From a virus: a stretch of 64,000 nucleotides of DNA. The stretch lies in IMG/VR virus record IMGVR_UViG_3300050120_000309, positions 1 through 64,000 of that record, one strand, 5' to 3'. The notes beneath the pieces are model-generated. The model had not been told where the DNA came from and did not search any database. It saw nothing but the letters and a program-made list of their open reading frames with translations. Position 1 is the stretch's first letter. The number at the start of each line of letters is the position of its first letter. Both the position numbers and the translations under genes were made by a program. This document shows, piece after piece, positions 4,455 to 63,364 of the stretch.

Positions 4455-4466
4455 CTAGTATAGGAA
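4455..4466 (-). promoter_or_regulatory. Putative late promoter TTCCTATACTAG (copy 1); also has an upstream CTTTGGCCG box at 4478-4486
   Basis: Exact 12-mer, intergenic, ends 6 nt before the ATG at 4448. Confidence 0.7.
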
Positions 4467-4486: not shown

Positions 4487-7400
4487 CTACTTGACCGGTG
4501 AGGTGACGGGTAGGGTATTGCTCGGTGCGCCCTTGAAGAAGCGGTAGTCGTCGATAAGGGGATAGATGTTGTCTGCCTTGAACTCCTGGAACGAGTTCTG
4601 GATGTTCTGCCAGAAGTCACTGATCTGATAGCCTTCGAGTCCGCCCATCCAAGGACGTCCCCAGCGCGAGACCGGCATGATCTCCACCAGGTTGGAGGTT
4701 TGGCTCTTGTAGCCGGTGTAAATGATGCCGCCCATGATGGCCACACCAATGAGGGACTCGAGCACCCACTCCGGAGGCCCGCCGATAAGAGCAGCTCCTA
4801 CAGCAGCTGTGGTCGCCACGGCAGCTCCGCCAACCCCTGCCGCTATCTTGGTCGAGGTGTTGGAATGAACAATGGCCTGTCCCAGACCTGTCAAGTTACC
4901 GAGGCTTTTGCCCATGACCATGCAGAACATACGAGAGATGTTGGCGGTTGCCGCCTCATTCACAGTCGTAATGGCGCGGGGATAAACCGTGGTGGTACAG
5001 CCCGTCTCTTGGTTGAAGCTATGGAGAACATGATCGACTTCGACGATGCCGACAATGGCAGTCGAGGGGTCGAGCATGATGAGTGCATGACCTGGCTCGA
5101 TTTCAGGTGTCCCACGGAGGATGATCTCTCCCTCGTACATCTTGCCGAGCTCTTCCTTGAGAAAGCTTTGCTGAATCGCCTTGCACAAGTGATCGTATGG
5201 TTCGATGTTGGCTTCAGCATCGATAAGAAGATCTGTGACGTCGAGGATCCTGGTGTAGTGGGAAGGGATATTTCCATTGGCTGACGCAGTGTGCGCGCCA
5301 ACCCGGACAGCGTTGTAGATCTTGTCATTCACACGCATGCTGTTGTGAATGATCGACTGATGATCGATAAAGTGATGCATCCGCACAGGCTTCAAACGAT
5401 CGTCTGACGAAGGGTTCTGCATCTCAAGATACTTTAGCCAGAGCTGACGAACGGCGATGATCTCATTGCGAGCTGCACGCGTCCTGGAGTTCTGCGACGG
5501 ACTGTCAATATCATTGACGAATGTACCCAGCAACTGATCGGCATAGTTGAGGAAAGCCGGCGTCGACTGGAACGCCGCTAGGCCGACGAACTGTTGGACC
5601 TCTGTGTTGAGGCTGTCGAGCGCGGCGTAGAACTGTGCTGGTCCCGTAGGTACTGGCCAGCTGAGAGAAGCACCCTGATCCGTCTTGATCGCGGCAAACA
5701 TAGCAGCCCAGGCTGTAGCGCCCTGGGTATTCCACCACTGAGTGAACTGTGCATCACTGGTCAAAGAGGCATGATAGCGCTCTGCGTCCCCGATCATGGG
5801 CAGGCGGGCGAAATACCAGTCAAGTGGATGAGCTACAACCAGAGTCGCATCCGCCGAGAAAGGGAAGCCATACTGCTTCACAAGAACCTGATACTCCGGG
5901 TAGCGGCGAGAGATGTCCCTGATGATCTCCCAGATGGTCTTGGTCGAATTATCGGGGATCTTGTAGTCGAACTGGTAGTAGAGATCGGTCGTCGATTCAT
6001 CATAGAAGTCGCGCGTGAGGCGCTGCTTCGATGCGTCTCCAAGGTGGTTGATGACGTGATTGATGAGAATGTTCTCGCCGCTGCGGTCGTAGCTGGCCAC
6101 CATCGCAGCACCGATTCTGGAGACTTCATTGGTCGATGAGGAAGAGAACTCTCCGATCATCTTGCCGGCACGGTTTTCCCAGGTCAGTCCCGTAATGAGT
6201 GGATCTGACAGAGCCGCGAGCTTGAAACTCCCAAAGTGCTTGGCATTGTCCATTTTCAACATGGATTCAACAACACTGGCAACGTCAGCTGAGTCATGCC
6301 ACGGCTGCCATCCTCCCCGCTTCTTACCTGCAACCGCTTTCTGGTCTTTGGTCGGCAGCTCACACAGTTCAGCGAGGTAGCTTTCGGCCTCAATAGTCAG
6401 GATGTCATCACCTTCTACGGTTTCGACACGACCGGTGAACACTGGAGTAAGAAGATCAGGATTGTTGGAGTATCCCATCCGAATTTGGATCTTCGTGCCA
6501 GGCTGCAGGACCGCGTACTGCAGAGGTACGCGCTCTACCTTACCCGGTACGACACCGTCGCGGAGGTCGTAGCCGAGCAACTGCTGTACTTGATAAGCCT
6601 GACCACTGATGGTGCGACCTCCGACTAGGGCTGCATTGGGGTCTCCTCCTGAAACAGGGCCGGCACCAGACGCAGGTGTAGTTGAGAAGAACTCCCGCTT
6701 GTAGAGCTCCAGCTCGTACTTACCCTGGGAAGTGTTGTCGAAGAGTTTGTGCTGGAGGATGTTGGCGACGTTTGTGATTGTTATGCGCGCCAGATCCGGT
6801 TTGTCCTTGTACTTCATGACTTCAATGTCAAGCACCGAAGCATAAGAGTAGAAGTTGTCGAAGCCTTGGATCCAGCCCGGGGAGGCGTCCTCAAGCAGGA
6901 AGAGTTTGTAGGTCGGAAAGGCCTCAGCCATGCTGTAGCCTGGGATATTCGTCATCCGAACGAGACTGTTCGTGTCGGCATTCTGCCCAACGTACTCGCT
7001 CTCGGTGATGGCAATGTCGTACGAGTCTGGACGCACTGGGGTATTGACTGCAGCGGCGGTCTGAGTTGCAGCAGTGACCACCTGATCGAGACTCGAACGT
7101 ACATGAGCCATGTACTCATCGTTGTGATTGACGAAGTAGTAGCCAGGATTGAAGTCCGCTCCATTGACGGTCAGAGTATCCAGGCCCATGTCTTTATAAG
7201 CGCCATGTCCGGCATTGACGGAATCTAGCCCTGGCCCTTGTGGAGAGACAGCAGTCGTAAACTGAGCAGAGAACCTTGGGCTGTTCGCCAGGGTGTTGAT
7301 ATCCGTGGCGAAGTTGGCGTCATAGGAAGACAGCAGGGGAAAGATTGCGTCATAGACAGACTGAATGACCGCCTTTCGGGAGGGCACGTTGGTCAGACCT

Positions 7401-9697
7401 TGCGCTGTGTTGTCAGCAGCTGTCAGCCCGAAATCCAATCCCCAGTTTGAATTCGTCTCCACCAGGGCCTGGAGTAGAAACGCATCTCCATAGGTGAAGG
7501 TTCCGCTCTTGAGCATCGGCTGGAGGCGCTTGAGCATCGAGGGGTAACCGGCGGCTACTCCATTGGTGGCAAAGGGTGTCAGCATCGTCGTAACCTGCGC
7601 CGGCTTAGCGTCACAGGAACCTGTAGCTGAGAGGCCAGTGAAATCAACGGCCGTCACCTTCCCAAGCTTCTGAAGGAAACCGGCGAGAACAGGATAGCTG
7701 TAGGCAGCTCGACCTGCGGAGAACGACGACAACTCCGTGATGGTATTGGCTTCATCAGGAGTAAGGCTGGAGAGAGCTCCCGAACTGACAAGGGCGGCCG
7801 CCTGGATCACCGAAGCTGAATCCAGGGATCGGATCTTGAATGGAGACGAGACCTCAAAGATGTTCTCGTACTGAGAACCAGTAACTTCGCACATCACGGT
7901 GTCGGATGTGTTCCCAAGAGTCTGAGCACTGATGCGGTCGATCATCACACCACGAAGGCCCAGCATATTGAAGACCTTGTTCTCGAGGTAGAACGCCTGC
8001 ATCCTGTGAATGCTCGATACCGCGCGCCAGGTGTTTCTGAACTTCAGGTATTGTGCTTCGAGATACTCTGAGGCACCAGAGATTGCCCGAATTCCAGGGT
8101 GGCTCGGTTCAATATCTTCGGAAGCCCGCTCACCCTTCGACAGGAATCCAAGGGAGAACTTCGCGCTCGTACTTCCAATGTGCTGATAGGTCGGGTACTG
8201 GTATCCGGCGAGAGGGATCTGGGCCAGGTTATTGGTGAACAGGATCGAGAACGTCGTCGGGACCATGTCATAGTTGTGCTCGAGATCACCATGATTGGTG
8301 TCTGAGAAGGTCAGTTCCTGCTCTTGATAGAAGAAGGCAACGTCATTGACTGCATGGTCATAAGACCAGCCCTCCTCGATGAGCTTGAGAACGTGCGCAC
8401 TCTGTTCGGCGGTGAGGCTATCGCCCGGAGCCGAACCTGTTGTGTCAGCAATGGGAGTAAGAGCGGCAGGTTTAGCAGCAGTTGGTGGAGACGCTACGAG
8501 GACTGCAGGAATCTTGGACTTCTTGCCACCAGCCGCAGGATTCGAATACTGAGGGGCATACAGAGCAATGCCCTTTGCGTAGTCCGGTTCAGGACCCTCG
8601 TAGTAGCCCTTGCTCTTGAGCGCAGCTGCCAGGCCGGCAGCGGTCTTCGGGGTTGCAGCAATGACGGTGCCGTAGCGCTTTCCGGTCATAAGGCTGCCGT
8701 AATAGACACCAAAGTCTGCGATGGTGGCGAACGGCCGGTAGATCTTTGTCCCGGGCCAGCGTACTCCTCCCAGGTTGTTGAGGGTGCGGGCTCCGCGGTT
8801 GGTGAAACCCTGAGTCTCAAATGCCCATTGGCCAAAGATCAATTCAGCAGGGAGGCCTGTCTTCTGGGAAGCAGTCGCTGCCGCGGCGCGCGCGGCGGCC
8901 GCAATCGAAGATGAGTTAGCATTCGCTGCAATTTGTGGGACAACAGTGTTTTGAACAGCACTGGCGACAGCTGCCGTGGCAGCAGCGGAGACACCTGTTG
9001 CCACCATCGTACCGATCTTCTGGGTCTGGTACTGACGGTAGCGTAGCTTCACTGTGCCGTCGATCTGGTCACGCCAGTTGAGGAGTGGAGATCCGTCGTA
9101 TGACGACTCCGGCCCGCCATCCAGATTCTTCTGCTGCCATGAAGCGATGTATTGCTGGAAGGGAGCGCACAGATAGGCGTCTGTCGACTGTCCCTTGTCC
9201 CCGATGTAACCAAAGTCCGAGGAGTAGGGGAAGTAGTTGAACAGCGTCATCGTCAGATCGACATCGAGGACATCAATCAGGTCTGAATTGGTCTTGACAG
9301 ATAGCTGCCGCAGGCCGAATCCCATGCGGGAATTAGTCATGGACGAATCCTGCTCCGCAAGAGCCTGGCGGATGAATCCGTTCTCTACCTCAACGAAGGG
9401 CGCTGCGTGAAACATGGCCAGGATGGCACGGAGATCCTCCCACTGTTTGTAGCGTCCATCCTCAGTTGAAGCAGTGTCATCGATCATGACCTTGAAGGCC
9501 ACACTGACATCCCATCGAGACTGACCAGTCTTCTTGATCATGTCGTTGCGGCCACGTAGGGTCGTCAAACGGTCGTTGTTGACCAGCTTGTCGGACTTGA
9601 TGTCGGTCGGTGGAACGGACAGGACGATGTGTCCAATCCGGAAGTAGCCGGCCTGAGTGGGGTTGTTCTTCTCGTACTCGCTGAATGTGATCGACAC
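4487..9697 (-). CDS. Large baseplate hub protein with GH73/FlgJ-type peptidoglycan hydrolase domain
   Basis: GLPAELIFGQWAFETQGF...NNLGGV...YRPFATIAD...GYYEGPEPDY (approx. 8530-8900) is a glucosaminidase signature; LQPGTKIQIRMGYSNNPDLLTPVFTGRVETVEGDDILTIEAESY resembles gp27/gpD-like hub domains. Confidence 0.75.
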   Translation of the reverse strand: MSITFSEYEKNNPTQAGYFRIGHIVLSVPPTDIKSDKLVNNDRLTTLRGRNDMIKKTGQSRWDVSVAFKVMIDDTASTEDGRYKQWEDLRAILAMFHAAPFVEVENGFIRQALAEQDSSMTNSRMGFGLRQLSVKTNSDLIDVLDVDLTMTLFNYFPYSSDFGYIGDKGQSTDAYLCAPFQQYIASWQQKNLDGGPESSYDGSPLLNWRDQIDGTVKLRYRQYQTQKIGTMVATGVSAAATAAVASAVQNTVVPQIAANANSSSIAAAARAAAATASQKTGLPAELIFGQWAFETQGFTNRGARTLNNLGGVRWPGTKIYRPFATIADFGVYYGSLMTGKRYGTVIAATPKTAAGLAAALKSKGYYEGPEPDYAKGIALYAPQYSNPAAGGKKSKIPAVLVASPPTAAKPAALTPIADTTGSAPGDSLTAEQSAHVLKLIEEGWSYDHAVNDVAFFYQEQELTFSDTNHGDLEHNYDMVPTTFSILFTNNLAQIPLAGYQYPTYQHIGSTSAKFSLGFLSKGERASEDIEPSHPGIRAISGASEYLEAQYLKFRNTWRAVSSIHRMQAFYLENKVFNMLGLRGVMIDRISAQTLGNTSDTVMCEVTGSQYENIFEVSSPFKIRSLDSASVIQAAALVSSGALSSLTPDEANTITELSSFSAGRAAYSYPVLAGFLQKLGKVTAVDFTGLSATGSCDAKPAQVTTMLTPFATNGVAAGYPSMLKRLQPMLKSGTFTYGDAFLLQALVETNSNWGLDFGLTAADNTAQGLTNVPSRKAVIQSVYDAIFPLLSSYDANFATDINTLANSPRFSAQFTTAVSPQGPGLDSVNAGHGAYKDMGLDTLTVNGADFNPGYYFVNHNDEYMAHVRSSLDQVVTAATQTAAAVNTPVRPDSYDIAITESEYVGQNADTNSLVRMTNIPGYSMAEAFPTYKLFLLEDASPGWIQGFDNFYSYASVLDIEVMKYKDKPDLARITITNVANILQHKLFDNTSQGKYELELYKREFFSTTPASGAGPVSGGDPNAALVGGRTISGQAYQVQQLLGYDLRDGVVPGKVERVPLQYAVLQPGTKIQIRMGYSNNPDLLTPVFTGRVETVEGDDILTIEAESYLAELCELPTKDQKAVAGKKRGGWQPWHDSADVASVVESMLKMDNAKHFGSFKLAALSDPLITGLTWENRAGKMIGEFSSSSTNEVSRIGAAMVASYDRSGENILINHVINHLGDASKQRLTRDFYDESTTDLYYQFDYKIPDNSTKTIWEIIRDISRRYPEYQVLVKQYGFPFSADATLVVAHPLDWYFARLPMIGDAERYHASLTSDAQFTQWWNTQGATAWAAMFAAIKTDQGASLSWPVPTGPAQFYAALDSLNTEVQQFVGLAAFQSTPAFLNYADQLLGTFVNDIDSPSQNSRTRAARNEIIAVRQLWLKYLEMQNPSSDDRLKPVRMHHFIDHQSIIHNSMRVNDKIYNAVRVGAHTASANGNIPSHYTRILDVTDLLIDAEANIEPYDHLCKAIQQSFLKEELGKMYEGEIILRGTPEIEPGHALIMLDPSTAIVGIVEVDHVLHSFNQETGCTTTVYPRAITTVNEAATANISRMFCMVMGKSLGNLTGLGQAIVHSNTSTKIAAGVGGAAVATTAAVGAALIGGPPEWVLESLIGVAIMGGIIYTGYKSQTSNLVEIMPVSRWGRPWMGGLEGYQISDFWQNIQNSFQEFKADNIYPLIDDYRFFKGAPSNTLPVTSPVK

Positions 9698-9699
9698 TA

Positions 9700-12600
9700 T
9701 TACCCTTCCAGGGCTTGCTGCATCTTCTCGCGGGTGCGGAGAGAGCCGGGCTTCATTTGATCGCGGTAGTTGATCGTGACGGTTGAGCTGCCATCAGTTG
9801 CCATGCGGGCCATCATCTTGGCGGTATGGTGCGCGCGCTGCTGATCGGAAGAACGGAGACGGACATCGAGGTCTCGTGTCTCGCCAAGGGGCGCAACGGT
9901 TGTGGTGCGGGTTTGTGCTGGGGCGGAATTGACGTTCCGTGGTGGGCGGGAAGGTGCTCGGGATCCGGCGGGACCATCTCCTGGAACCATGTCGGGACCA
10001 GGGTGAGTCTCTTCCGGACGATACTTGCTCGTGGAGTCCCGGCCAAAGGCTGCAAATGGTTTGCTGAGGCGGGTTGTTGCAATGCCTGCGATGACGGCGG
10101 CCGCGGCGCCTATGCCGAGAACCATACCAATCTTGCTTCCACGAGCCTCACGGGCAACGCTTTCAGCTGTCCGAGTCACCTCATTGAGAGTTCCCAGAGC
10201 TTCTGCCGACCAGGTGCTGGCGGCGCCGGCGGCAGTCCGCGCTTCTTCAGCTGTCGTACTGGCGGCTTGAGAGTAACTGAACATCTCCGAACCCATACCC
10301 AGAGTCTTGGCACTCGCTGCGTTCTCTGCCGGCGTCGTCATGGCCTGGACTGCCTGATCGACTGCTTCACGATCGAATCCACTGTGAAATTGTTCGAGGA
10401 TCTCGCGGTTCTCAGCAAGATAGTCACGGAATGAGGTACGGTCGTTGCCATCGGCAGCGTCCGCCAGCTGGCCCAATGAACCGTAGAAGTGATCGAAGGT
10501 GCCACCCTTACGCATGGAGTTACGCAAGCTGCTGTCGATCTCCAGCGCCTTAGCCAGATCGAGATCGTTCTGATTCTTGAGCTTCATGCCCGAGATCGGA
10601 CCCTGTTTCACAGCCTGCATGAAGAAGGTTGACAGGCTGCTCTTGACTTGAGAATTGGTGATGTTCCGATTCTCTTCGAGTGCCGCCATCATCATGGAGT
10701 AGGTATTCGAACCTGAACCGACAGCTCCGCCGACGGAACGACGACGAAGCGCTTCGTTCCGGGTGTAGAACTTCTGATCCTTGAGACGGCCGAGGAAGGA
10801 CTTGTAAGCACCTTCCTTCGTCCCAACTGTCTGACGAGTCTCGTCACCAACGCCAACAAGGTTCTGCAGATCAGGGACATCCAAGTTCTGAGAGGACTTG
10901 GGGTTCATGACTGCTTCGCGTGCTTCGGCTATCGCATCTTCAGAGTCGAGATAGGAAATGTTCGGACGGTCACCGTCCATATCGAGCATCATTAGCGCAC
11001 GGATCCGCTCATCGATGCCAATACCGGTTGCCTTGTTGAGGTGAGGATCGAGAACGACTCGAACTAGTGGAACGTGCCCTACGGGCTCGCGACTCAGCAT
11101 CGCAAAGACGTCCTCTCCATTGAGGAGGGCGTCACGAACCTTCTTGCTCCGAATCTTCCTGGCCTGGGCCTTACCGATGGCAACTTCCCATGGGTTGATA
11201 GCGCCATCTGCATAGCGCATGCTTGAGGGGCGTGTGTGGGAGGCGAGGGTCTGGGAGAGAGGATCAACTGGGCCGCTACGATAGAAGCTGTCCTTGCCAT
11301 GGACGAACTTCTTCAGCGTGTCCTTATAGGCTTCAGTCTGTCTGGCGATCGTTCCTTCATCAGCGCCCTCCTCATGCATCTTCATGAGCTGGAAAAGAGC
11401 GCTTTCGTGCTCATTTGTTGAGAATTGACCGGCGCCGTAGCGGTTGACCTTGCCACCATAGGCACTATGGCCGAGTACGGGCACAGCGCTGCCGTCGGGC
11501 ATCTTCAACATGAAGTTGTTCTCAGCAGCGACATTGCCTGGATCAAAGATGGAACCAGCACGATTGGAGGCAGTCGTAATGCTACGAGTGCCCGGTGCAA
11601 TGGCATCGCCGAGACTGATCGTGTTTGAGATCGCAGTCTCATCACCCTGGAAGTGCTTGAGCAGATCACGAGTCTGGGTTAGATCGCCGTCATACTTGAG
11701 GCGGCCGGTGATGTTGCCCGCTACGCCATGGTGGCCGCGGATTACCAGCTGCTGCTGGGTGTAGTAGGCGAACTTGGTCTGCTTCGGGACGTTGTAGGCC
11801 ATGTCGTCGGTGATGCGCAGCTCTGAAGGCATGGCATAACGATTGACATAGTCGGCCCAGGGAGTCTTTCCGCCCTTCTCAACATGGGCAGCATAGCTCT
11901 GCATGAACTCATCGCCACGGACTGCATGCGAGGTGATGCGGTCGGAGACATCCTGGAGCATGTTCTTCAGAACAGTGTCTTCTTGCTGAATACGCTCGGG
12001 TGTACGGATGCCCTGCTTGGTGAGGTCCTGATTGAGAGTGCCGTTGTTGTACGCGAAACCAGCCTCAGCCAGGGGATCCCGCCACTTCGACATCACGGGC
12101 TCAAGCTCACCATGCTCCTCCAGACGGCGGAGGGAGTCAGAAGAGATACGAGATAGTGCATCCTGCAGCTCCGAGTCCTTGTTGGTGAACGAACCCTGCG
12201 AAGCGTACACATCAACCTCACGCGGGATGAAGCCGCCGGCTCCGGTGGCGTCGCGGTAGTTGTTCAGACCAGTGCGGAGGCGCTCACTGTCTCCAGTACG
12301 ATCGAAGCTCTGAAGAATGCCTTTCTGGGAGCCGACATTGAACTTGGTGCCTGTCTCGATGTCCTTGACTTCACGCACGACAAAGCGAGTCGTTCCGTCA
12401 CCCATGTTGTGAGTGTTCTCAATGAAGTTCTCTGCTCCCTGTGCGGTGACAGGATTGCCGTTGCGTCGGCCGAGAAGGATCTTGCTTGGGCCATAGACCT
12501 TCTTACCTTCGGCGCTGAGGGTGAAGGTGCGCTTCCCGTCCTCATCGAGAAGGCCGTAGTGCTTCTCCATGGATTGCCCCATGAAATTCTCCCAGCCGGA

Positions 12601-14697
12601 GACAGCCTCTTCATTGACGTCATAGGCCATGTAACGCTCGACACGCGCGCCATTCAGATTACGGGCAGACAAGAAGTCGCCCTCGCCAGCCCGGCCGGCG
12701 GACTTCATGGCACGGAAGTTGCCCGGCTCGGAGAGGTGCTGCACGACCTTGAACCATGCGTCCTTAGCACCGGCGTGATCCAGCTTATGTTCCGCCTGCA
12801 TGATCGACATAGCGGTCAGGTCGTAGCGGCCATTGGCAGCAAAGGCTTCAAGGTATGCACTGAGGCGAATTGCTTTGGTCTCGGCACTGGTCACGCGGCC
12901 TACCCGGGATAGCTCTTGCTCGATTTGACCTTCAGCGTAGGAGGTTACATCCGGCATGTCACCGAATAGGGTCTGCTCACCAGGAGTGATCCCAGCAACG
13001 CGTACGCCCATGACCGGATCGACGATGCCCTCAGCTGCAATCTTCCCGGTCGAAGCGAAGGGGCTAAGGCTGTCACGAACTGGAGAAACTCCTTTGAAGG
13101 TCTCAGCGGGCATGGCGATGCGAATGTTCTTGGTGATGGCGCGATAGACGGAATTCTGTTTCTCAAGGCTGGCATTGCGAGAGAGATCACCAACGTGGTG
13201 GGCATAGAGCTTGAACTCGGGAACACCACCTTCAGAGCCCAGAGGAATCAGATTGTGGTATTCGGCCGCGGAGACACCGGCCTCGACGAAGTCGGCCGCT
13301 CCGGTCTTGCCCTTGCGCAGCTGTCGCAGTCCTTTGCCAGGTCCGCTTTCAGCGTTGCCGAAGCCGAACAGATCGGAAGGCAGGTACTCGTACTGACGGA
13401 GTTTCTGCGCACCATTGCGCTGGACGTACTCCCCATAGGTTGTGTCACGGTATGCGGACCAGCTGTCAGACTGGTCAACCATGCCATACATGTTGGTGCG
13501 CTTGAGCTCCTCACCCACGGTCTTGATACCGAAGCCGCGGCCGAGGGCTTCGAAGGCATAAGCATCGGACTTCCATGCGTCACGCGCTGTGTACACATTA
13601 CGAGCCACGCCCCTGCGCTGGAAGCTGGATCCAGTACGAATCTCACCGTCCTTACCCACAACAGGAATGGTCAGGCCCTTCCGTTGGCCAGCTGGTTTAT
13701 AGGTGAGGCCGACGATGGCGTTGCCGTCTTCCTCTGATGTTTGAATGCTCAGATACTTGGGGTTGAAGCGTTGTCCCTTTGCCCCACCGGACCGGATCGC
13801 GCGCTCAATCGAACCAAAGAGGTCAGGTCGTGAGGTGGCGAGCTCGGCGCGCAGACCTTCGGCGTCGTTCCAGCCCACGCTGCTGATGAATGTCTTGGGA
13901 CCGGCGCCCGCGGCGCGCGCTCCGCCGGGATCGAAGAAGTTCTTCTTATCTGCCATGCGAGACGTCAATCCCTTGATGAACTTGACGTCACCACTGGAAG
14001 CAGTTCCTTCACGGAAGGCCTTGACTTTGCCCTTCATGATCAGCTTGATGTCCTTCTCGGTGAGCATCGGGGCGTTCCGAGGAATGACCTTGGCGCCAGG
14101 CCCCTTCATACCGTCGTTCAAACTCTCGGCGTACTCAGCTAGGCCGGCAGCATCCAGGCTCCGAAGCTTCTCGGCGTGGATGGCGTTCGAGATATAGCGC
14201 ATGTTCTTGCTGGTCTTGAGATCAGCATCGACGATCGTTTCCAAGGTGGTCGCTACGCGGTTGTAGTCGCCCTTACTGCGCGTCATGCCGGCGTAACGGC
14301 GGCGCTTGACGGTCTGGAACTGCTCGAGTGCGATCTTCTGCTGTTCATAGGCGCGCTGAGCCTCTTTGATGTCGGTGTAGGAGACTTCCTTGCCATGAAC
14401 AGACTGCCGCCATTGACGGTGCGCCTTGGGCATGCCGACCATGCGCGTCATGTTCTGGGACACGGTAGGTCCCATGGTGGAAGCTGAATAAGCCACAGCT
14501 CCAATGAGAGGTGTGGTGAACGCAGCAGTCTGGCTGTAATCCCGGTTCTCGTTCTGAAGCAGAGCTGGTGCCAGAAGCATGGCAGCGGCAGCGGCCGTTG
14601 CACTGCGGGGATGACCCTTCGCGAAGGCCACACCACTGCGCTTGATCGCGGTGGCGCGGTCTTTGGCGCGGGTGAGGAACCTTGTATCGATGGGCAT
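9700..14697 (-). CDS. Putative single-chain two-barrel (double-psi beta-barrel) RNA polymerase, probably virion-associated
   Basis: Beta-like GTKFNVGSQKGIL (K785/K792) followed by EVDVYAS; beta'-like LSREP (R1203) 36 residues before DMDGD (1239-1243, nt 10969-10983); located within the tail gene block. Confidence 0.7.
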   Translation of the reverse strand: MPIDTRFLTRAKDRATAIKRSGVAFAKGHPRSATAAAAAMLLAPALLQNENRDYSQTAAFTTPLIGAVAYSASTMGPTVSQNMTRMVGMPKAHRQWRQSVHGKEVSYTDIKEAQRAYEQQKIALEQFQTVKRRRYAGMTRSKGDYNRVATTLETIVDADLKTSKNMRYISNAIHAEKLRSLDAAGLAEYAESLNDGMKGPGAKVIPRNAPMLTEKDIKLIMKGKVKAFREGTASSGDVKFIKGLTSRMADKKNFFDPGGARAAGAGPKTFISSVGWNDAEGLRAELATSRPDLFGSIERAIRSGGAKGQRFNPKYLSIQTSEEDGNAIVGLTYKPAGQRKGLTIPVVGKDGEIRTGSSFQRRGVARNVYTARDAWKSDAYAFEALGRGFGIKTVGEELKRTNMYGMVDQSDSWSAYRDTTYGEYVQRNGAQKLRQYEYLPSDLFGFGNAESGPGKGLRQLRKGKTGAADFVEAGVSAAEYHNLIPLGSEGGVPEFKLYAHHVGDLSRNASLEKQNSVYRAITKNIRIAMPAETFKGVSPVRDSLSPFASTGKIAAEGIVDPVMGVRVAGITPGEQTLFGDMPDVTSYAEGQIEQELSRVGRVTSAETKAIRLSAYLEAFAANGRYDLTAMSIMQAEHKLDHAGAKDAWFKVVQHLSEPGNFRAMKSAGRAGEGDFLSARNLNGARVERYMAYDVNEEAVSGWENFMGQSMEKHYGLLDEDGKRTFTLSAEGKKVYGPSKILLGRRNGNPVTAQGAENFIENTHNMGDGTTRFVVREVKDIETGTKFNVGSQKGILQSFDRTGDSERLRTGLNNYRDATGAGGFIPREVDVYASQGSFTNKDSELQDALSRISSDSLRRLEEHGELEPVMSKWRDPLAEAGFAYNNGTLNQDLTKQGIRTPERIQQEDTVLKNMLQDVSDRITSHAVRGDEFMQSYAAHVEKGGKTPWADYVNRYAMPSELRITDDMAYNVPKQTKFAYYTQQQLVIRGHHGVAGNITGRLKYDGDLTQTRDLLKHFQGDETAISNTISLGDAIAPGTRSITTASNRAGSIFDPGNVAAENNFMLKMPDGSAVPVLGHSAYGGKVNRYGAGQFSTNEHESALFQLMKMHEEGADEGTIARQTEAYKDTLKKFVHGKDSFYRSGPVDPLSQTLASHTRPSSMRYADGAINPWEVAIGKAQARKIRSKKVRDALLNGEDVFAMLSREPVGHVPLVRVVLDPHLNKATGIGIDERIRALMMLDMDGDRPNISYLDSEDAIAEAREAVMNPKSSQNLDVPDLQNLVGVGDETRQTVGTKEGAYKSFLGRLKDQKFYTRNEALRRRSVGGAVGSGSNTYSMMMAALEENRNITNSQVKSSLSTFFMQAVKQGPISGMKLKNQNDLDLAKALEIDSSLRNSMRKGGTFDHFYGSLGQLADAADGNDRTSFRDYLAENREILEQFHSGFDREAVDQAVQAMTTPAENAASAKTLGMGSEMFSYSQAASTTAEEARTAAGAASTWSAEALGTLNEVTRTAESVAREARGSKIGMVLGIGAAAAVIAGIATTRLSKPFAAFGRDSTSKYRPEETHPGPDMVPGDGPAGSRAPSRPPRNVNSAPAQTRTTTVAPLGETRDLDVRLRSSDQQRAHHTAKMMARMATDGSSTVTINYRDQMKPGSLRTREKMQQALEG

Positions 14698-14699
14698 GT

Positions 14700-17600
14700 C
14701 TACTCCTGGTACTCAGTGGGGTTGCGTCTCATGTCATTGAGGACTGACTCTTCGTTATCGATCTGTGCGTCGACACGGACAGTAGCGTGAGACTGAGGGG
14801 CAGCTTGAGATAGCGTTCGGACGTCAGGGTTGCCATTGTTATTGCCGGCGGCAATCATCATGGTCTCGACTGCGCTCCGGAGCTGGTCCTGGGAACGGCC
14901 GTCGCCTGAGGTCAGCTCCTGGACAGCACCTTCAACATACGGTTTGCGCCAGAGGAGGGAAGCGCGATCGTCGAACAGATTGAAGTCATGCTCGTCGTAA
15001 CCTTCCTGCTGAACTATCTTGAGCTTGACGTCCTGGTAATCCAAAGCGTCATTCATGAGCTCGGAGTCAGGGCTGTCTGGCATGGCGAATCCAGTACGAG
15101 AGAAGAACTTCGAGATCTCTACCGATCGAAGGAAGTCGCCAAAGCCCAGTTTGGTATCGGCTGCGGTGTAGGCATCCCGATCTTCCTCGGTGAACATACG
15201 TCCCTGGGATCCAATTGCATCAGGGTGTTCACCAGAAGCGATCTTGATCTTCTCAGTAGACTTGGCCCACTGCGCGGCAAGCGCGCGGCTAGTCTCATCC
15301 GGGACGATGTTGAGAATCTTGGCACGCACATCAGGGTCCGTCTCCTCGACGAACTTCTTGAAATAACGTGCTTCTCTGTTGGGGAGGGTGGAGGCGACGT
15401 AGCCCGCTGAGCCGAAGAGATTGGCGCCGACTGAAGTCCTCTTTGCCTGGCTAGTATAACGTCCACGGTGCTCGGGGTCGCTTGCAGCGTTGTTCAGTCC
15501 CCGGAGGTAGGCAAGTTGATCGGTAAGGGTATCGAGATCCCGGTTGCGCTGGACGTCTTCGGGGATGATGGCCACGTCTGCGACGCGCTCGGCAACGCCA
15601 CGGAGGTAGGGCGAGAGGAAGTCATGGATCGGTCTTTCCCATCGGCGCATACGAGTGCCGATGGCTTCCTGCTGGAGGTACTGGCTGTAGACAGTGCGCT
15701 CTTGCCACATCTTGGTCTGAACTTGCCCCGGCAGGTAGCGGAGCGGGTTCCAGCGGCTGTTATCCCCTTCAAAGGAGATGGCCTCGGCGTACTTGCCCAG
15801 AGCCTGAGCAACCTTGCCGTGCATTGCCTGCTCTTCAGCTCCGCCCAGGTCCTTACGGAACCGGCCAAAACCCTGGTCAATCAGCGCACGATTGATGTTG
15901 AATCCGTCGACTTCGAACACTGCACGCACATTCTCTGAGTTGTCGGCAGCACCTCGTCCGACGGTCAGATTTACCTTGGAACCTTCTGAAAGCACGGTAC
16001 TTAGGTACTGATCACGTTCCTTGAGCTTACCCTCTGCGATGTTCGCCGCTTGCGAACGATTCAGTTTATTTGACTTGCCCAGAGTATCGGCCACGAGATC
16101 GGCCATTGAGCTGCCAACGGAACTGAAATGGAAGATGCGGCCTGGATACTCCGACAGCTCGACTCCTCGGAAGGAAGCACTCTTGACCGTGCCCTGGACC
16201 TTGTCAACGGGTGCGTCGAAGCGTCGCTGATCTACCTGGAGGGTGGATTCCTTGGTCTGGCGGACCTGCTCAACCACCTGCTCATACTGAGCACGGAGAT
16301 CTGTATCACCATGAGATTTCTTCTCAACAACTGCCCGGATCTTGTTGTACTCGCGGGAGTAGGGCGCCACATCAGCGAGGATGCTGAGCTTGTTGATGTC
16401 TGGGTAGTCTTCCGGATTCAGTCCTTCGAGCTCGGGACGGAGTGCGGCGTACCCGGCTCCGGGCAGGCGCGCGTACCCTTCGTCGACTTTGACATAGGGG
16501 TCACCCTTCTGGAAGTTGATGAGATGATCTTCGCCTGGGATCCATGAGGGCATCTCGTTCTGGATCTCGTTGACCTGAGGACTGAACCCTTCATGCTGAA
16601 TGAATCGGCGGAGAGGCTCGGAGTAGCCGACGAGACCATTCTCTGTCTCCGGAGAAACGAACATACCCGCGCCCATATTGCGCTCGTAGTACTGTCGGCT
16701 CAGGGAGTCCATCTGGCGGGAACCTTGCAGATAGACCTCTTTGCCCTTGTTCTTGTCAGGATAGAGCGCGTTGAACGAGCTCTTCATGATGAAGCCAGGG
16801 AGACCGATGAACTCAGCAAAGGTACGAACTTCCTGCTTGGCGGCGTGCCACAGACCGTACTCTTCCTTCGGCTTCGCGGCAGCGAGCGCATCAGGACCCT
16901 TCGGCTCCAATCGAGTCGAGTAAAGGGTGTAGTCCTTTTCGTTCCACTCATCCTCGTGCATGCGATGCACGGGCTTGAACACCTTGCCTAGTGTGGCGGC
17001 GAGGAGAGGTCCAACGAGGGGCACATTCGAGAATGCAGGGGACGTTACCGGGTAAGGTCGATCCTTATAGTGTTCTTTCTCCAACCAATAGGGATCTTTC
17101 AGGTACTTGATCGGGTGTAGGAACGGGTTGTGGTCCCAGTAGTTCTTCTCCGATCCATACAGAGACTTGGTCCACGCCCGACTCTTATATAGAACAGAGG
17201 AATGAGGACGCCAAGCGGTAATGCGCGATCCGGAGAACGCGTTGGAACCAACTTCCCACCACCGGCCCTGACGGATGGGCACATCTTCTTCGCCGGCGTA
17301 GATGCGTCGGAGCTCACTGCCTGTCTTGCGGGAGCCCAGCATGCCCGGAATAAATGGCAGCATGGCAGCGAGGCCGATCAGGGCGCCCTTACCTGGAGTT
17401 CCAAGTGCTCCCCAAAGAGCCTTGGCTTTGCCGGCTGCACCTTCGGCGGCCATTGCCCGCTTGAGCAGTCCAAATGCAGGAAGAGTGGTTCCTTCTGCGT
17501 CCCGATAGGCACGGGCGATGCGGTCCCCGCCAGCAAACTTATCGCTGAAGGCAACCTGGCCCATATGAACGAGGCCACCGATGAAAGCTCCACCCAGCGG

Positions 17601-18710
17601 GAGGGCTAGCGGGCCATACTGAGGGCCTGGCACATTCTCAGCGAACCAATCAGTGGTCTTGCGAGCGCCAGGCGTAGCGTCGGTCAGATCGGCGCGAAGG
17701 ACATTGGCCTTGAGACCGACGTCGATGATGGCGTTGGACGGGCGATGGTCCAGCTTGTAGTCGAGCCAGCGCGCCGCGGTAATGGCGATTGCCGCCGGCA
17801 GCACCCGCTTGGTCAGAAGACCATTGAGCAATCCGCCCTTGCCGATGCCAGGGATATGGAAGACTTTGTTGTAGGAACCCTGCTTGAGGCCGAAGCCAAA
17901 CTCGGTAAGCAGCTTTTGAGGACGTTCAAATAGCTCGAAGAGTTGAGGACCCATCGAGCGACGAGCATTGTCGTAGCTGTTCTTCGCGCGGCCGAAGACA
18001 CTGGCGCCTTCACCGGCCTCAGTCCGTGAGTACCACGCGGAGTAGCGCTGACCATTACTGGCCTTCGCACCCGGGGTCCAGTTCTTGGGGTTCTGGGTCT
18101 CGCGCCAGGTGTTGAAATTGCCCCAAGTGTTGTCGATTGGGTTGGATGACCACTTCCAATCAGGCCGCTTGTCGTAGAGAGGGCGGTTGTACCGGGTGGA
18201 TGACCCCGGCATATGGCCGCCAGCCTTGCCAAAACGTACCTTGACGCCGTCGAAGCCCTCCAGGTTGAGGAAGGGGCTCCCGCGCTGCCCGCGCTTGAAC
18301 CTGAGTCCGTCCTTGCCCTGTGCGGAACGTAGGTGCCCTTCAAGATTGACGTTGTCGCCGAACAGACGCTGGAAATGAGCGCCCTGATCAGTGAGCTTGC
18401 CTCCCCGGAAGAGTTCCTCATGAGAGAAGTGGAGATCATCGACGACATACGATGATGCTCGCTCCGAGAACCGGAGGGTTGAACCCATCCGATTGGGAGT
18501 AACCTCTTCGAACTTCGAAGCCCAGCGATAGACATTCTTGGCGTAGTCCGGCTGCGTGCCGAGGGCTTGTTTGTGGGCAGCAAGTGCAGCACCCCCTACA
18601 GCAAGCACGCCGAGCGTGCGCCATAGAGGGTTGTAGCCTTCTTCGGATTCGAGGATGTCTCGACGCTGATAGCCAGAGCTATCGATGTCGAATACGGAGG
18701 TGGATTTCAC
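14700..18710 (-). CDS. Giant virion protein in the tape-measure position, with hydrophobic segments and a degenerate thermonuclease (SNase)-like domain
   Basis: Follows the chaperone genes; TM-like segments (LGVLAVGGAALAA, LALPLGGAFIGGLV, GALIGLAAMLPFIPG); VQGTVKSASFRGVEL...VRAVFEVDGFNINRALIDQGFG resembles the SNase fold. Confidence 0.55.
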   Translation of the reverse strand: MKSTSVFDIDSSGYQRRDILESEEGYNPLWRTLGVLAVGGAALAAHKQALGTQPDYAKNVYRWASKFEEVTPNRMGSTLRFSERASSYVVDDLHFSHEELFRGGKLTDQGAHFQRLFGDNVNLEGHLRSAQGKDGLRFKRGQRGSPFLNLEGFDGVKVRFGKAGGHMPGSSTRYNRPLYDKRPDWKWSSNPIDNTWGNFNTWRETQNPKNWTPGAKASNGQRYSAWYSRTEAGEGASVFGRAKNSYDNARRSMGPQLFELFERPQKLLTEFGFGLKQGSYNKVFHIPGIGKGGLLNGLLTKRVLPAAIAITAARWLDYKLDHRPSNAIIDVGLKANVLRADLTDATPGARKTTDWFAENVPGPQYGPLALPLGGAFIGGLVHMGQVAFSDKFAGGDRIARAYRDAEGTTLPAFGLLKRAMAAEGAAGKAKALWGALGTPGKGALIGLAAMLPFIPGMLGSRKTGSELRRIYAGEEDVPIRQGRWWEVGSNAFSGSRITAWRPHSSVLYKSRAWTKSLYGSEKNYWDHNPFLHPIKYLKDPYWLEKEHYKDRPYPVTSPAFSNVPLVGPLLAATLGKVFKPVHRMHEDEWNEKDYTLYSTRLEPKGPDALAAAKPKEEYGLWHAAKQEVRTFAEFIGLPGFIMKSSFNALYPDKNKGKEVYLQGSRQMDSLSRQYYERNMGAGMFVSPETENGLVGYSEPLRRFIQHEGFSPQVNEIQNEMPSWIPGEDHLINFQKGDPYVKVDEGYARLPGAGYAALRPELEGLNPEDYPDINKLSILADVAPYSREYNKIRAVVEKKSHGDTDLRAQYEQVVEQVRQTKESTLQVDQRRFDAPVDKVQGTVKSASFRGVELSEYPGRIFHFSSVGSSMADLVADTLGKSNKLNRSQAANIAEGKLKERDQYLSTVLSEGSKVNLTVGRGAADNSENVRAVFEVDGFNINRALIDQGFGRFRKDLGGAEEQAMHGKVAQALGKYAEAISFEGDNSRWNPLRYLPGQVQTKMWQERTVYSQYLQQEAIGTRMRRWERPIHDFLSPYLRGVAERVADVAIIPEDVQRNRDLDTLTDQLAYLRGLNNAASDPEHRGRYTSQAKRTSVGANLFGSAGYVASTLPNREARYFKKFVEETDPDVRAKILNIVPDETSRALAAQWAKSTEKIKIASGEHPDAIGSQGRMFTEEDRDAYTAADTKLGFGDFLRSVEISKFFSRTGFAMPDSPDSELMNDALDYQDVKLKIVQQEGYDEHDFNLFDDRASLLWRKPYVEGAVQELTSGDGRSQDQLRSAVETMMIAAGNNNGNPDVRTLSQAAPQSHATVRVDAQIDNEESVLNDMRRNPTEYQE

Positions 18711-25722: not shown

Positions 25723-25734
25723 CTAGTATAGGAA
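25723..25734 (-). promoter_or_regulatory. Putative late promoter TTCCTATACTAG (copy 2)
   Basis: Exact 12-mer, intergenic, upstream of the terminator-sheath-tube genes. Confidence 0.7.
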
Positions 25735-28349: not shown

Positions 28350-28361
28350 CTAGTATAGGAA
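28350..28361 (-). promoter_or_regulatory. Putative late promoter TTCCTATACTAG (copy 3)
   Basis: Exact 12-mer, intergenic. Confidence 0.7.
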
Positions 28362-46831: not shown

Positions 46832-46843
46832 CTAGTATAGGAA
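46832..46843 (-). promoter_or_regulatory. Putative late promoter TTCCTATACTAG (copy 5)
   Basis: Exact 12-mer, intergenic. Confidence 0.7.
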
Positions 46844-50958: not shown

Positions 50959-50970
50959 CTAGTATAGGAA
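50959..50970 (-). promoter_or_regulatory. Putative late promoter TTCCTATACTAG (copy 6)
   Basis: Exact 12-mer, 10 nt before ATG 50948; marks the upstream edge of the late region. Confidence 0.7.
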
Positions 50971-60475: not shown

Positions 60476-60574
60476 ATGTACCTGCGGTGCAAGCCCATAA
60501 GCACCGTATGTGCCAGAGACGTGGTCCAAACACGTCTCTGGCTTACTTCAACTACCAGATCAAGGAGAATGATC

Positions 60575-63364
60575 ATGTCCAACAATACCAAGAAGACCCT
60601 CGCCCTCGTCAAGGAAATGGAACTGAAGCCCCGCGTTCGTGTCCCCTACGTCGCAGGTGTTCACAGCCACTTCCACGCCCCAACCATGTTCCACAGCACC
60701 TGGGAAACGTCGAACTTCTTCGACATGTTCCTCCCAGAGGGTGTGAACTATGTTGAGGTGTCTGTACTCGGCCGTACTGAGGATGAACTGGATGCCAACA
60801 CATCCTGGTTCGACCACATCGGACGGGAAGGTCTCAAGATCCAAGGTGTTACGCACCGTGTGATCTTCGGTGACTGGGATGACGACGGAGTTGCCATCAT
60901 GGTGCCGGCGGACGCAGTGAAGGGACTTCAAGACCTCGGTCTATCCCTCCAAATCAATGGACCCGCAGATAAGGCTAAGGTACGCAAGTACTTCCGTCGT
61001 ATCCGCGCGCACCACGAATGGGCCATCTCGGGCGCAATCGTTGCCACCAAACAGGTGGAGAATGGTGAGGTACTGACCGTTGCTCCGGATAGCCAGTCGG
61101 ACATCCGGTTCGATATGCTCCATGTCGACCTCAAGGGCATGGACCCAATCAACGTAGCACTCGCTGATGGTGTACACCTCATCGATGTCAACCTGTGCCA
61201 TACCATTGGCCTGGCCTACGGCATCGATAAGCTCACCAACGTCAAAGTGGGTGATGCGTTCAAGGGAACAGCACTCTCAGGTCTCGGCCTGGGTAAGGGC
61301 TTCTTCCATGTCGTTGAGAACGCAACCTATGGAATCGTCCTGTATGGAGCGAAGAAGCAAGTCACGTTCAGTGAGTTCTTCCTCGGCTCACTCGGAGATG
61401 TCAAGGGTGCTGATGTGGCCTATTCGGACCTTCAGTCAACCATCAACTTCGACTATCACCAGGGCGAAATGCTCTATAACCAGTCCGTCCTGTTCATGCA
61501 GGAAGTCATGGAGGCAATCCACAACGAAGACAAGATGCGCCACGTGTTCCTGACACACATGGCTCCGATCTCCGAGATCCTCAGCAATGAGGAAGATGGC
61601 GGTCGTGAGTCCTGGGTACTGCTCGAAGCACTCCGCAAGGGTGTTCCGGTCAGCGCGCAGGGACCAATGAATCCCGGCCTGTTCCGCAGGGTGGTGCGTC
61701 ATCTGTTCACACACGTGCTCGATGCAACCAAGGGACGTGTTCCCTTGACTGGTATCGTGGGACGTTTCAACCTCATGCCTGACCTCAACTGCTTTCTCGA
61801 AGATGGATCTGTGGACTATCGTCTCAGCTCTATCCCAGCAGAAGCTGTGGTCTGCATGGATCTCGATCAGGGCCCATTGGCCATGTATCGTCAGCCCTCG
61901 GGACACAAGAAGGAGCTGGTCAGCACGAACAATGTGCATGACCGTCGCTTCAAGAAGTTCCGTGGTCAGAACCGTATCATCCTCGGTGCAGATGCACTAG
62001 AGTATCTCGCCATCATGGGTGGTGGAGATATGGACGATGCGGTCAATGCAACCGTCAACCTGTCCTGGGTGGAGACAATGGCAACTGGGTCATACCCGTT
62101 GACTGCACTCCCCGCGGCACAGAGCACCAAGGCACTCGACGCAGACAACAAGTATCGTCGTGGTCCTGCCTATCCCCGTCAATGGTCGATGATCGACTTC
62201 TTCGAAGCAGTTGCTGCTTCCAAGGAGAAGGCATCCATGTCCATTGGTGTCGTCGTCAACGCAATCATGCTGGATGAACTCCTGTCCGGCGTGCATAAGG
62301 AGAACATGCTTACCGATATCGCCGATCGCATCGTTGATGCCAAGGATGAGTCGGAGAAGCATGACCTCCGTGTCGCCTATGACTGGCTCCGCAACCGTGA
62401 GGATCGTATCCTCCGTGTCGTGGCTTCCAATCTGGAGGCATTCATCGATCAGAGCAAGACTGGTGCAGGTGATGCTGCTGTATTGGCATCATTCACCGCT
62501 CTCATCAACGAGGTCCGTAACAACAGCATGGTGATCCCCTCGTCGTTCATGATCAAGAACAACAAGGGCCGTGAGCGTGTGCCAGCTAAGCGTCTCATGG
62601 ATATGGACTTCATCACAGCGCCCTCGCTCGTCTGCGAGACGCTCAACCGTATCAAGTTCGAAGCCGATCAGATGCAGGAGGCTCTGGTCGAGGAGCAGTG
62701 GCTCAACGTGGACAGCATTCCTGACTCGTTGGACGCAGCATTCCCACGCAGCAAAGCACACCGTGAGGAGGCATTCGAGCTCCGTATGGCATGGGGTGAG
62801 GCATTTCAATCCCAGCCCAATGCAGACCTGGCGATTCGCTATAAGAACGCCATAGATAACGTGGTCAAACCAGCCTTCTTGAACAAGGAATTGTTCGAAG
62901 AGGACAAGGTTCAGATCGCAGTGGAGCATGCTCGTCTCACCTACCGTGGTCGCAAGACTCAGGCAGAGCGTGGCGAGAATGGTCGGTTCCGGAACTACCC
63001 TGATGGGCTGCTCTGGACCAACACCATCGGTCTGTACTACATCAAGGCGCTCGAAGAGGCTGGACTTACCGGTCTGTATGTACCGGTTCAGTTCGATCGC
63101 TGGAGCCGCAACCTCAGCCGTGGTGCATTTGATGTCCGGGTCGTAGCCGGCATCGTTCTGCGCGCGGAAGATGACATGATGCTCGGAACCACGTTCAATG
63201 TCCTCGATGAAGTAGAGGATGGTATCTATCCCATGATCGATGGCATGATCACCGTCCAGGCACCTGCAGCTGAACTGCGGGCGCCTCGCAACATCGTCAA
63301 TGAGTCGTTCGACAACCCCATGGAGCTGGACTTCGATCTTGATGAAGTCTTTGCCCGTGGCTAG
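60575..63364 (+). CDS. Single-subunit two-barrel RNA polymerase of the cellular RdRP/YonO-like type (variant DxDD catalytic loop)
   Basis: Ordered motifs LADGVHLI, AFKG...GKGFF, MYRQP, MGGGDMDD (62027-62038); R to first D spacing 46 aa; start moved to ATG 60575 behind AAGGAG. Confidence 0.75.
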   Translation: MSNNTKKTLALVKEMELKPRVRVPYVAGVHSHFHAPTMFHSTWETSNFFDMFLPEGVNYVEVSVLGRTEDELDANTSWFDHIGREGLKIQGVTHRVIFGDWDDDGVAIMVPADAVKGLQDLGLSLQINGPADKAKVRKYFRRIRAHHEWAISGAIVATKQVENGEVLTVAPDSQSDIRFDMLHVDLKGMDPINVALADGVHLIDVNLCHTIGLAYGIDKLTNVKVGDAFKGTALSGLGLGKGFFHVVENATYGIVLYGAKKQVTFSEFFLGSLGDVKGADVAYSDLQSTINFDYHQGEMLYNQSVLFMQEVMEAIHNEDKMRHVFLTHMAPISEILSNEEDGGRESWVLLEALRKGVPVSAQGPMNPGLFRRVVRHLFTHVLDATKGRVPLTGIVGRFNLMPDLNCFLEDGSVDYRLSSIPAEAVVCMDLDQGPLAMYRQPSGHKKELVSTNNVHDRRFKKFRGQNRIILGADALEYLAIMGGGDMDDAVNATVNLSWVETMATGSYPLTALPAAQSTKALDADNKYRRGPAYPRQWSMIDFFEAVAASKEKASMSIGVVVNAIMLDELLSGVHKENMLTDIADRIVDAKDESEKHDLRVAYDWLRNREDRILRVVASNLEAFIDQSKTGAGDAAVLASFTALINEVRNNSMVIPSSFMIKNNKGRERVPAKRLMDMDFITAPSLVCETLNRIKFEADQMQEALVEEQWLNVDSIPDSLDAAFPRSKAHREEAFELRMAWGEAFQSQPNADLAIRYKNAIDNVVKPAFLNKELFEEDKVQIAVEHARLTYRGRKTQAERGENGRFRNYPDGLLWTNTIGLYYIKALEEAGLTGLYVPVQFDRWSRNLSRGAFDVRVVAGIVLRAEDDMMLGTTFNVLDEVEDGIYPMIDGMITVQAPAAELRAPRNIVNESFDNPMELDFDLDEVFARG

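Follow-up and report, generated by a model that had tools for sequence, protein, structure and literature searches.

A predicted single-chain two-barrel polymerase in the tape-measure slot of an uncultured myovirus

To our knowledge, only two lineages of virion-delivered single-chain two-barrel polymerases have been studied experimentally, namely those of the crAss-like phages and of the Thermus P23-45-like siphoviruses. In the literature the two-barrel RNA polymerases (RNAPs) are defined by a pair of features: a barrel carrying an Asp triad and a second module that supplies two basic residues. The concept of a virion two-barrel polymerase is already known, since both P23-45 (PMC10770324) and the crAss-like phages provide direct precedents; in P23-45 the virion RNAP gp96 is fused to the tape measure (PDB 8H2M/8H2N). 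Of a viral contig of 95.9 kb in IMG/VR (record IMGVR_UViG_3300050120_000309, completeness ~45%), the first 64 kb, called the window below, were analysed here with respect to one gene of the tail module, which encodes the 1665-residue protein P0001. The predicted structure strongly supports the assignment of P0001 as a single-chain two-barrel polymerase, most likely a DNA-dependent RNAP.

A first-pass annotation, made from the letters of the window, had already proposed a virion RNAP encoded by this gene. The reading frame is open as it described, and every motif and coordinate that it quoted proved correct when the sequence was re-read (Table 1): K785 and K792 lie in GTKFNVGSQKGIL, R1203 lies in MLSREP, and the triad D1239-D1243 (DMDGD) begins 36 residues after R1203. 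The core of the protein (residues 470-1490; 1021 residues, 61% of P0001) was modelled by AlphaFold2 (AF2) from a 69-sequence alignment without templates, with a mean pLDDT of 93.2 and a pTM of 0.91. The top 50 matches of the model in a Foldseek search against the PDB are RNAP β′/RPB1 chains, the polymerase of phage AR9 and QDE-1 (probability 0.96-1.0). Re-scoring with VIA-align gave Z 12.5 for QDE-1 (root-mean-square deviation (rmsd) 4.1 Å, 358 residues aligned, model 1-1011) and Z 11.3-12.1 for the largest subunits of Pol I/II/III and of the vaccinia, African swine fever virus and bacterial enzymes, all of them on model 548-1012. The same segment is the one matched by VIA to Pol I A190 (Z 12.0), Mycobacterium tuberculosis β′ (Z 10.2), Pol II, vaccinia and archaeal A′.

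The first half of the model was assigned by a wide VIA search, independent of Foldseek, over 48,161 representative chains. Model 1-503 matches the non-virion RNAP (nvRNAP) of phiKZ (7ogp_C, Z 10.0, 282 aligned), the AR9 polymerase (7s00_C, Z 10.0), the Xanthomonas β subunit (6j9e_C, Z 9.6, 312 aligned) and Pol I A135 (4c2m_B, Z 8.8). Single-chain enzymes were recovered over both halves: QDE-1 (Z 11.8), P74-26 gp62 (Z 10.3), P23-45 gp96 (Z 9.5) and maize RDR2 (Z 8.9). The double-psi beta-barrel (DPBB) of the β′-like half is matched by isolated DPBBs (CDC48-N, designed DPBBs and VAT-N), which superimpose on model 678-805 with rmsd of ~2.1-2.2 Å over 85-92 residues and Z 8.5-10.2. The Asp triad is located inside this segment, at model 770-774. 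K785 and K792 are placed on adjacent strands of the β-like half (E315-319 and E322-328). The model thus contains both of the defining features, a DPBB with DxDxD following [RK]xP and a β-like module with two conserved Lys residues. The search that the first-pass annotation proposed for its RNAP reading, structure prediction followed by Foldseek, strongly supports the enzymatic part of that reading: a β-like half, a β′-like half and a double-psi barrel with an invariant Asp triad are all predicted. The alignments with the largest subunits reach model ~1012 and run through two long helices, H844-872 and H880-902, which carry the conserved residues R1320, G1327, S1330, N1331, Q1365 and K1372. These two helices may correspond to the bridge helix and trigger loop.

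The conservation pattern of the family points in the same direction. A word-indexed search retrieved seven full-length relatives of P0001 at 38-55% identity. When a profile was then searched against 1.84 billion cluster representatives, the family grew to 140 metagenomic clusters (defined at 50% identity), 91 of them at E < 1e-30. Conservation was evaluated on an alignment of 58 full-length members of 1372-1829 aa with identity down to ~20%; fused forms much longer than 1829 aa were absent from a cluster-representative search with no restriction on length. Only 37 positions are conserved at 90% or more. The residues singled out in the first-pass annotation are strongly retained: D1239, D1241 and D1243 are invariant, R1203 is conserved at 97%, and K785 and K792 at 95% each. 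P1205 is invariant as well. The x positions of DxDxD, in contrast to the invariant Asp residues, show 34 variants, including the canonical DFDGD, DYDGD and DLDGD. RxP is present in 56 of the 58 relatives, at a distance of 35-42 residues from the triad. Invariant Asp residues, variable residues between them and a steady RxP spacing are the signature, as read from the alignment, of selection on a metal-binding catalytic loop. Downstream of the barrel a further conserved block comprises R1320, G1327, S1330, N1331, Q1365, I1368 and K1372. One assignment was not confirmed by this comparison: EVDVYASQGS had been equated with PVDIVLN of the cellular β subunit, and its E827 is invariant only in the 8 closest relatives and is not among the positions conserved at 90% or more.

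Taken by itself, the motif would say little. The expression [RK]xPx{20,100}DxDxD, used as a filter by Chaban et al. and satisfied by P0001, matches 4 of the 136 stop-to-stop frames of at least 150 aa in the 96-kb genome, P0001 being one of them. Since three other long frames also match, the bare motif is weak evidence and does not exceed chance; the excess over chance comes from conservation across relatives and not from the occurrence of the motif.

Several shorter proteins belong to the same family. P0006 (994 aa, 14 member sequences) starts exactly at the Met equivalent to M664, as do many short predicted proteins; this Met corresponds to window position ~12706 downward and lies just ahead of the β-like barrel. 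Such starts may stem from a gene-calling error that recurs on fragments, or the protein may really occur in a split or internally initiated form. Other short database proteins match only the C-terminal tail module of P0001.

The genomic setting of the gene is that of a contractile tail. A minus-strand block runs from ~51.7 kb down to position 1 and encodes terminase, portal and capsid, then the sheath (23126-25000), two tube-like genes, a 503-aa gene, two small open reading frames (ORFs), three giants (1336, 1665 and 1736 aa), small baseplate-region ORFs and Baseplate_J. P0001 is the middle giant and is separated from its neighbours by 2 bases on each side. Homologs of the sheath, both tubes, the 503-aa protein (ORF142-like), the 1336- and 1736-aa giants and gpJ occur in the same order in Bacillus phage 0305phi8-36 (ORF139-151) and in Acinetobacter phage vB_AbaM_ME3 (ME3 below; ME3_29-41). 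This synteny puts P0001 in the tape-measure slot; in 0305phi8-36 the slot is occupied by ORF146, which bears the label "hypothetical tape measure protein". According to the annotation of that phage, mass spectrometry detected ORF146 in virions, and ORF145 too. The placement given by the first-pass annotation, between tail chaperones and baseplate hub, therefore stands in part: the gene follows the tube genes and the chaperone-position ORFs and lies directly upstream of the hub-like giant, but its immediate upstream neighbour is the 1336-aa giant and not the chaperones. The two small chaperone-position ORFs themselves gave no family match. The 1736-aa giant contains a glucosaminidase domain at residues 272-380 (Pfam PF01832, E 7.5e-8; PHROG "endolysin", E 4.5e-35) and a C-terminal hydrophobic segment; of the three giants, it is the one that probably cuts the cell wall. 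A common origin of the three giants as paralogs of one another was considered and rejected.

Both ends of P0001 are hydrophobic, as had been noticed in the first reading. The C-terminal segment (residues 1521-1544) is strong, and the N-terminal Ala/Leu stretch (residues ~33-47) is weaker, yet conserved; the latter may be a virion-incorporation or membrane segment.

The genome encodes a second polymerase, P0148. It matches no Pfam or PHROG family; its AF2 model (pLDDT 84) is matched over the whole length by QDE-1 (Foldseek E 5e-16, TM 0.49), and further structural matches are plant RDR2, the P23-45-type non-virion gp64/gp62 and crAss gp66. The family of P0148 has an invariant RQP and, in place of DxDxD, an unusual invariant DxDD. 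Since a YonO-like single-chain polymerase was reported in 0305phi8-36 by Iyer et al., P0148 is an enzyme of a known kind. One relative of each protein comes from a contig of 141,917 bp, the length being identical in the two cases, which suggests that the P0001 and P0148 families co-occur. By analogy, the two proteins resemble the virion/non-virion polymerase pair of P23-45.

Two classes of repeated motifs accompany these genes. The 12-mer TTCCTATACTAG (17-mer form TTCCTATACTAGNCAGN) has 6 exact copies where 0 are expected, each of them on the coding strand and heading a run of structural genes (minus strand, 4455-4466, 25723-25734, 28350-28361, 38285-38296, 46832-46843 and 50959-50970). The copies at 25723 and 4455 bracket a ~21-kb sheath-to-hub unit that contains P0001, and a phage polymerase may use the motif as a late promoter. 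The second motif, CTTTGGCTC, has 7 exact copies against 0.52 expected, all on the minus strand (31966, 53324, 54101, 54932, 56347, 57237 and 58174) and concentrated at 53-58 kb; it forms a second promoter-like class.

Table 1. Coordinates in the window of P0001, its parts and the associated features
Feature	Position (nt)	Strand	Basis or remark
P0001 gene (1665 aa, stop codon included)	9700..14697	-	Open reading frame
N-terminal Ala/Leu-rich hydrophobic segment with TTPLIGA motif, residues ~31-75	14473..14607	-	Conserved in alignments A1 and A3
Polymerase core, residues 470-1490 (modelled)	10228..13290	-	AF2; Foldseek and VIA-align matches almost all RNA polymerases
Predicted β-like half, residues 470-972 (model 1-503)	11782..13290	-	Holds the Lys-bearing beta-rich domain; VIA wide search
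K785...K792 hairpin (GTK-x6-KG), candidate active-site basic pair	12322..12345	-	Conservation and model strands
Predicted β′-like half, residues 1017-1481 (model 548-1012)	10255..11649	-	Structural matches to largest subunits
Predicted double-psi beta-barrel with catalytic loop, residues 1147-1274 (model 678-805)	10876..11259	-	DPBB alignments
RxP motif, R1203-E-P1205	11083..11091	-	R 97%, P 100% conserved
DxDxD putative metal-binding triad, D1239-M-D1241-G-D1243	10969..10983	-	All three Asp 100% conserved
C-terminal membrane-helix-like segment, residues 1521-1544	10066..10137	-	Kyte-Doolittle mean 2.14 over 19 residues; conserved Gly/Ala pattern
Conserved C-terminal tail, residues ~1596-1665	9703..9912	-	Highly conserved in alignment A1
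Upstream giant, 1336 aa, homolog of virion structural proteins 0305phi8-36 ORF145 and ME3_35	14700..18710	-	tblastn E 1e-16 to 3e-32
Downstream giant, 1736 aa, homolog of 0305phi8-36 ORF147 and ME3_37 "baseplate hub protein"	4487..9697	-	tblastn, blastp
Nearest TTCCTATACTAG copy upstream of P0001	25723..25734	-	Next copy 4455-4466
Second polymerase P0148 (931 aa, QDE-1/YonO-like), candidate non-virion partner	60569..63364	+	AF2 and Foldseek

The most probable joint reading of these data, which we hold with fair confidence, is that P0001 is a two-barrel polymerase made late, built into the virion and ejected to transcribe the first-entering genes, whereas P0148 serves the later classes. By the mechanism of the superfamily, the three Asp residues would hold the catalytic Mg2+ ions, and the Lys pair of the other barrel, presumably part of the active site, would stabilize the incoming nucleoside triphosphate or the transition state. 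P0001 would be expressed late from the sheath-tube-giants operon and assembled into the particle together with its two giant neighbours, the ORF145-like protein and the hub-like peptidoglycan hydrolase. It would leave through or with the contractile tail, perhaps be held at the envelope by the hydrophobic segments at its two ends, and then transcribe the first genes entering the cell with no need of the host polymerase. P0148 would then take over. The presence of two or more strand-faithful classes of promoter-like motifs fits such a polymerase cascade.

Several points weigh against this reading. No sequence-level link from P0001 to any characterised polymerase was found by library, PDB-sequence and profile searches: there were no matches in Pfam, PHROGs or NCBIfam, none among the PDB sequences (phmmer, hmmsearch) and none by tblastn in 50,697 phage records, a set from which near-identical entries may be missing; a pattern scan of IMG/VR gave no relatives, and a search of the ESM Atlas gave nothing but one unnamed cluster (0.82). 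The type of template (DNA or RNA, single- or double-stranded) is not readable from the fold, and the best match, QDE-1, uses both. The core in the model is compact and globular (~110 kDa), whereas a tape measure is extended, and in its folded state it would not fit into the lumen of the tail tube. ORF146 has neither DxDxD nor detectable similarity to P0001, so that its presence in virions transfers to P0001 by position only. Packaging and early-gene specificity are purely inferred: from the position of the gene among late virion genes, the homology of its neighbours to virion proteins, the hydrophobic ends, the existence of a separate non-structural polymerase, and the precedent of N4, the phiKZ virion RNAP (vRNAP), crAss gp66 and P23-45 gp96.

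The slot itself raises the alternative that P0001 is a structural protein of tail lumen or ejection, a tape measure or conduit former, in which a polymerase-derived core has been turned to some other task, such as motor-like DNA pulling, priming or RNA-templated synthesis, in place of promoter-specific early transcription. The tape-measure annotation of the 0305phi8-36 slot, the membrane-helix-like C-terminal segment and the match to QDE-1, which acts on single-stranded templates, all agree with this, and the PolD subunit DP2 also matches the model (Z 6.9). This match is, however, far poorer than those with RNA polymerases, and strict selection is seen on a full RNA polymerase catalytic signature. 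Synteny with 0305phi8-36 and ME3 does assign the slot, with the 1336-aa giant intervening between the chaperone-position ORFs and P0001, but at least 61% of the protein (the 1021 modelled residues) is predicted as a compact, globular alpha/beta multidomain body (pTM 0.91) and not as an extended alpha-helical ruler. Judged by the model, P0001 is not a conventional tape measure, and a structural role of this kind is unlikely.

An unpackaged enzyme also has to be weighed. P0001 could be a genuine two-barrel RNAP that is made late and acts in the infected cell, for instance on late genes or in RNA-primed replication, early transcription being left to P0148 or to the host enzyme. In SPbeta it is the late genes that YonO transcribes, and given this example the roles of P0001 and P0148 could be swapped; besides P0001 the genome encodes another polymerase and carries several classes of promoter-like motif that either enzyme might read, and packaging, as said, is reached by inference. 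What speaks for the virion is the place of the gene within the tail operon, where homologs of virion or baseplate proteins flank it on either side across 2-base gaps, and the conserved hydrophobic terminal modules, which a cytoplasmic enzyme does not need. In addition, all known phage polymerases encoded among late structural genes are packaged (N4, phiKZ vRNAP, crAss gp66 and P23-45 gp96). We therefore consider it improbable that P0001 stays out of the particle. That P0001 is no polymerase at all, its motifs being due to chance (the bare expression does occur in three other frames of the genome) and its model a false positive that no sequence method supports, is largely refuted and hardly credible, since the triad is invariant in 58 relatives at ~20% identity and a high-confidence template-free model returns polymerases for each half separately in two independent structure searches.

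Equivalents of one part of P0001 were encountered elsewhere. Residues ~640-820, the Lys-bearing beta-rich domain, have counterparts at 35-45% identity on soil/peat metagenome contigs (L003-L013) and on large chromosomal contigs of Acidobacteriaceae metagenome-assembled genomes (L018-L023). A genome can have several copies; one has two. Next to each chromosomal fragment (~400 bp), and divergent from it, stands a gene for a 207-aa serine recombinase (Resolvase E 3.7e-43, HTH_7), among ordinary genes, as in the cassette L019:9339-11071. The DNA similarity between the copies stops just past GTGTK..KG, where the frames enter low-complexity sequence, and pairwise dN/dS is 0.1-0.6. No intron was detected at these loci by Rfam. 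An interpretation of the fragments as stand-alone β-like subunits of a split polymerase was rejected: no DxDxD partner is encoded nearby, the frames run into low-complexity sequence, and the fragments lie in Acidobacteriaceae chromosomes beside a serine recombinase. Their location suggests Acidobacteriaceae as the host lineage. A wider picture can be drawn only tentatively, and we regard it as rather doubtful in its entirety: a large, almost wholly uncultured myovirus clade, probably infecting Acidobacteriaceae and with a structural counterpart in ME3, would use a self-contained polymerase of the tape-measure slot that travels in or with the tail, inserts at the envelope by its hydrophobic ends and transcribes, and perhaps helps to pull in, the genome during entry; together with P0148 it would make the phage independent of the host RNAP, and the host fragments would perhaps be a domesticated decoy or interference module.

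In the literature searched, there appears to be no description of the P0001 family, of a myovirus setting for it, of a stand-alone form placed between two other giants, or of how abundant the family is in uncultured phages. As a virion polymerase it would represent a third lineage, one of ~140 clusters, found in myoviruses and invisible to sequence methods. Giants annotated as "hypothetical tape measure" or "hypothetical protein" in jumbo phages like 0305phi8-36 and ME3 can be polymerases, and ME3 gp36 offers a counterpart in a cultured phage on which direct tests are possible. The family is also relevant to the question of how large folded enzymes exit from contractile-tailed virions, and to the early diversification of the polymerase superfamily, including the cellular enzymes and the RNA interference polymerases.

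A positional counterpart is encoded by ME3, a cultured jumbo myovirus. Its gp36 (ME3_36, AND75197.1, "hypothetical protein", 1603 aa, L017:13173-17984) occupies the slot of P0001 between the ORF145-like and hub-like giants; like P0001 it has an N-terminal hydrophobic segment, and SREP is followed 43 residues later by DHDQD. Chaban et al. do not list ME3 among the phages of their "two RNAPs" table. The model of P0001 has matches in BFVD to giant proteins of crAss phages, to polymerases of giant viruses (NCLDV), and to proteins of Acinetobacter phage ME3 and Microcystis phage MaMV-DC. The second match is the second 802-residue chunk of the ME3 protein A0A172Q021_2 (E 1.6e-8), which, by the size of the chunk, is probably ME3_36. 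Another ME3 protein, A0A172Q0S6 (798 aa), also has a polymerase-like BFVD match. Neither ME3_36 nor ORF146 matches the hidden Markov model (HMM) or profile of the P0001 family; hhalign detected no homology of the family profile to P23-45 gp96, 0305phi8-36 ORF146 or ME3_36, and the family HMM had no match among all ORFs of the P23-45, 0305phi8-36 and ME3 regions. ORF146, with 2537 aa and no DxDxD, indicates that proteins other than polymerases can also occupy the slot. A further BFVD match is A0A8S5SD80_1 of an uncultured siphovirus ("Minor tail protein [Siphoviridae sp. ctnpt50]", E 2.5e-8 over ~1000 columns). Going by this structural match, polymerases encoded in tail modules may have a wider distribution than the P23-45 case.

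In overall fold, P0001 is closest to the enzymes of QDE-1, eukaryotic RDR and YonO type, which give the best whole-length match (Z 11.8-12.5, 358-403 residues aligned) with the same order of a β-like and then a β′-like half; the identity is 11-12%, with no match at the sequence level. P0148 is much closer to this group (E 5e-16, TM 0.49), so that P0001 is the more divergent of the two polymerases of the genome. With gp66 of crAss phage phi14:2 (PDB 6VR4), which is a virion protein, P0001 shares a giant size, a DxDxD barrel and the failure of routine annotation to recognise it. Both lie between giants: gp66 is flanked by two giant packaged proteins, one with a cell-wall or protease-type enzyme domain, and the glucosaminidase of the 1736-aa giant has a parallel in the crAss gp65 cargo protein and in the P23-45 tape measure, which carry wall-degrading or protease domains. 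The two polymerases differ in that gp66 belongs to another sequence family (no PHROG or tblastn match), has a structural score below those of QDE-1 and the cellular subunits, and is encoded in a phage with a podovirus-like tail, outside any sheath/tube operon.

The comparison with P23-45 shows both likeness and difference. The polymerase of gp96 forms the N-terminal fifth of a 5002-aa ruler and has no clamp, whereas the 1665 aa of P0001 are mostly polymerase; the tail of the P0001 phage is contractile, with two further giants flanking the polymerase, and the sequences show no detectable relationship (hhalign probability 0.4%). Both are, by prediction in the case of P0001, single-chain two-barrel polymerases at the tape-measure position of the tail module, with the RxP...DxDxD signature and hydrophobic or membrane segments; the two match in structure (Z 9.5, 311 aligned), and both genomes encode a second, non-virion two-barrel polymerase, which in the present phage would be P0148.

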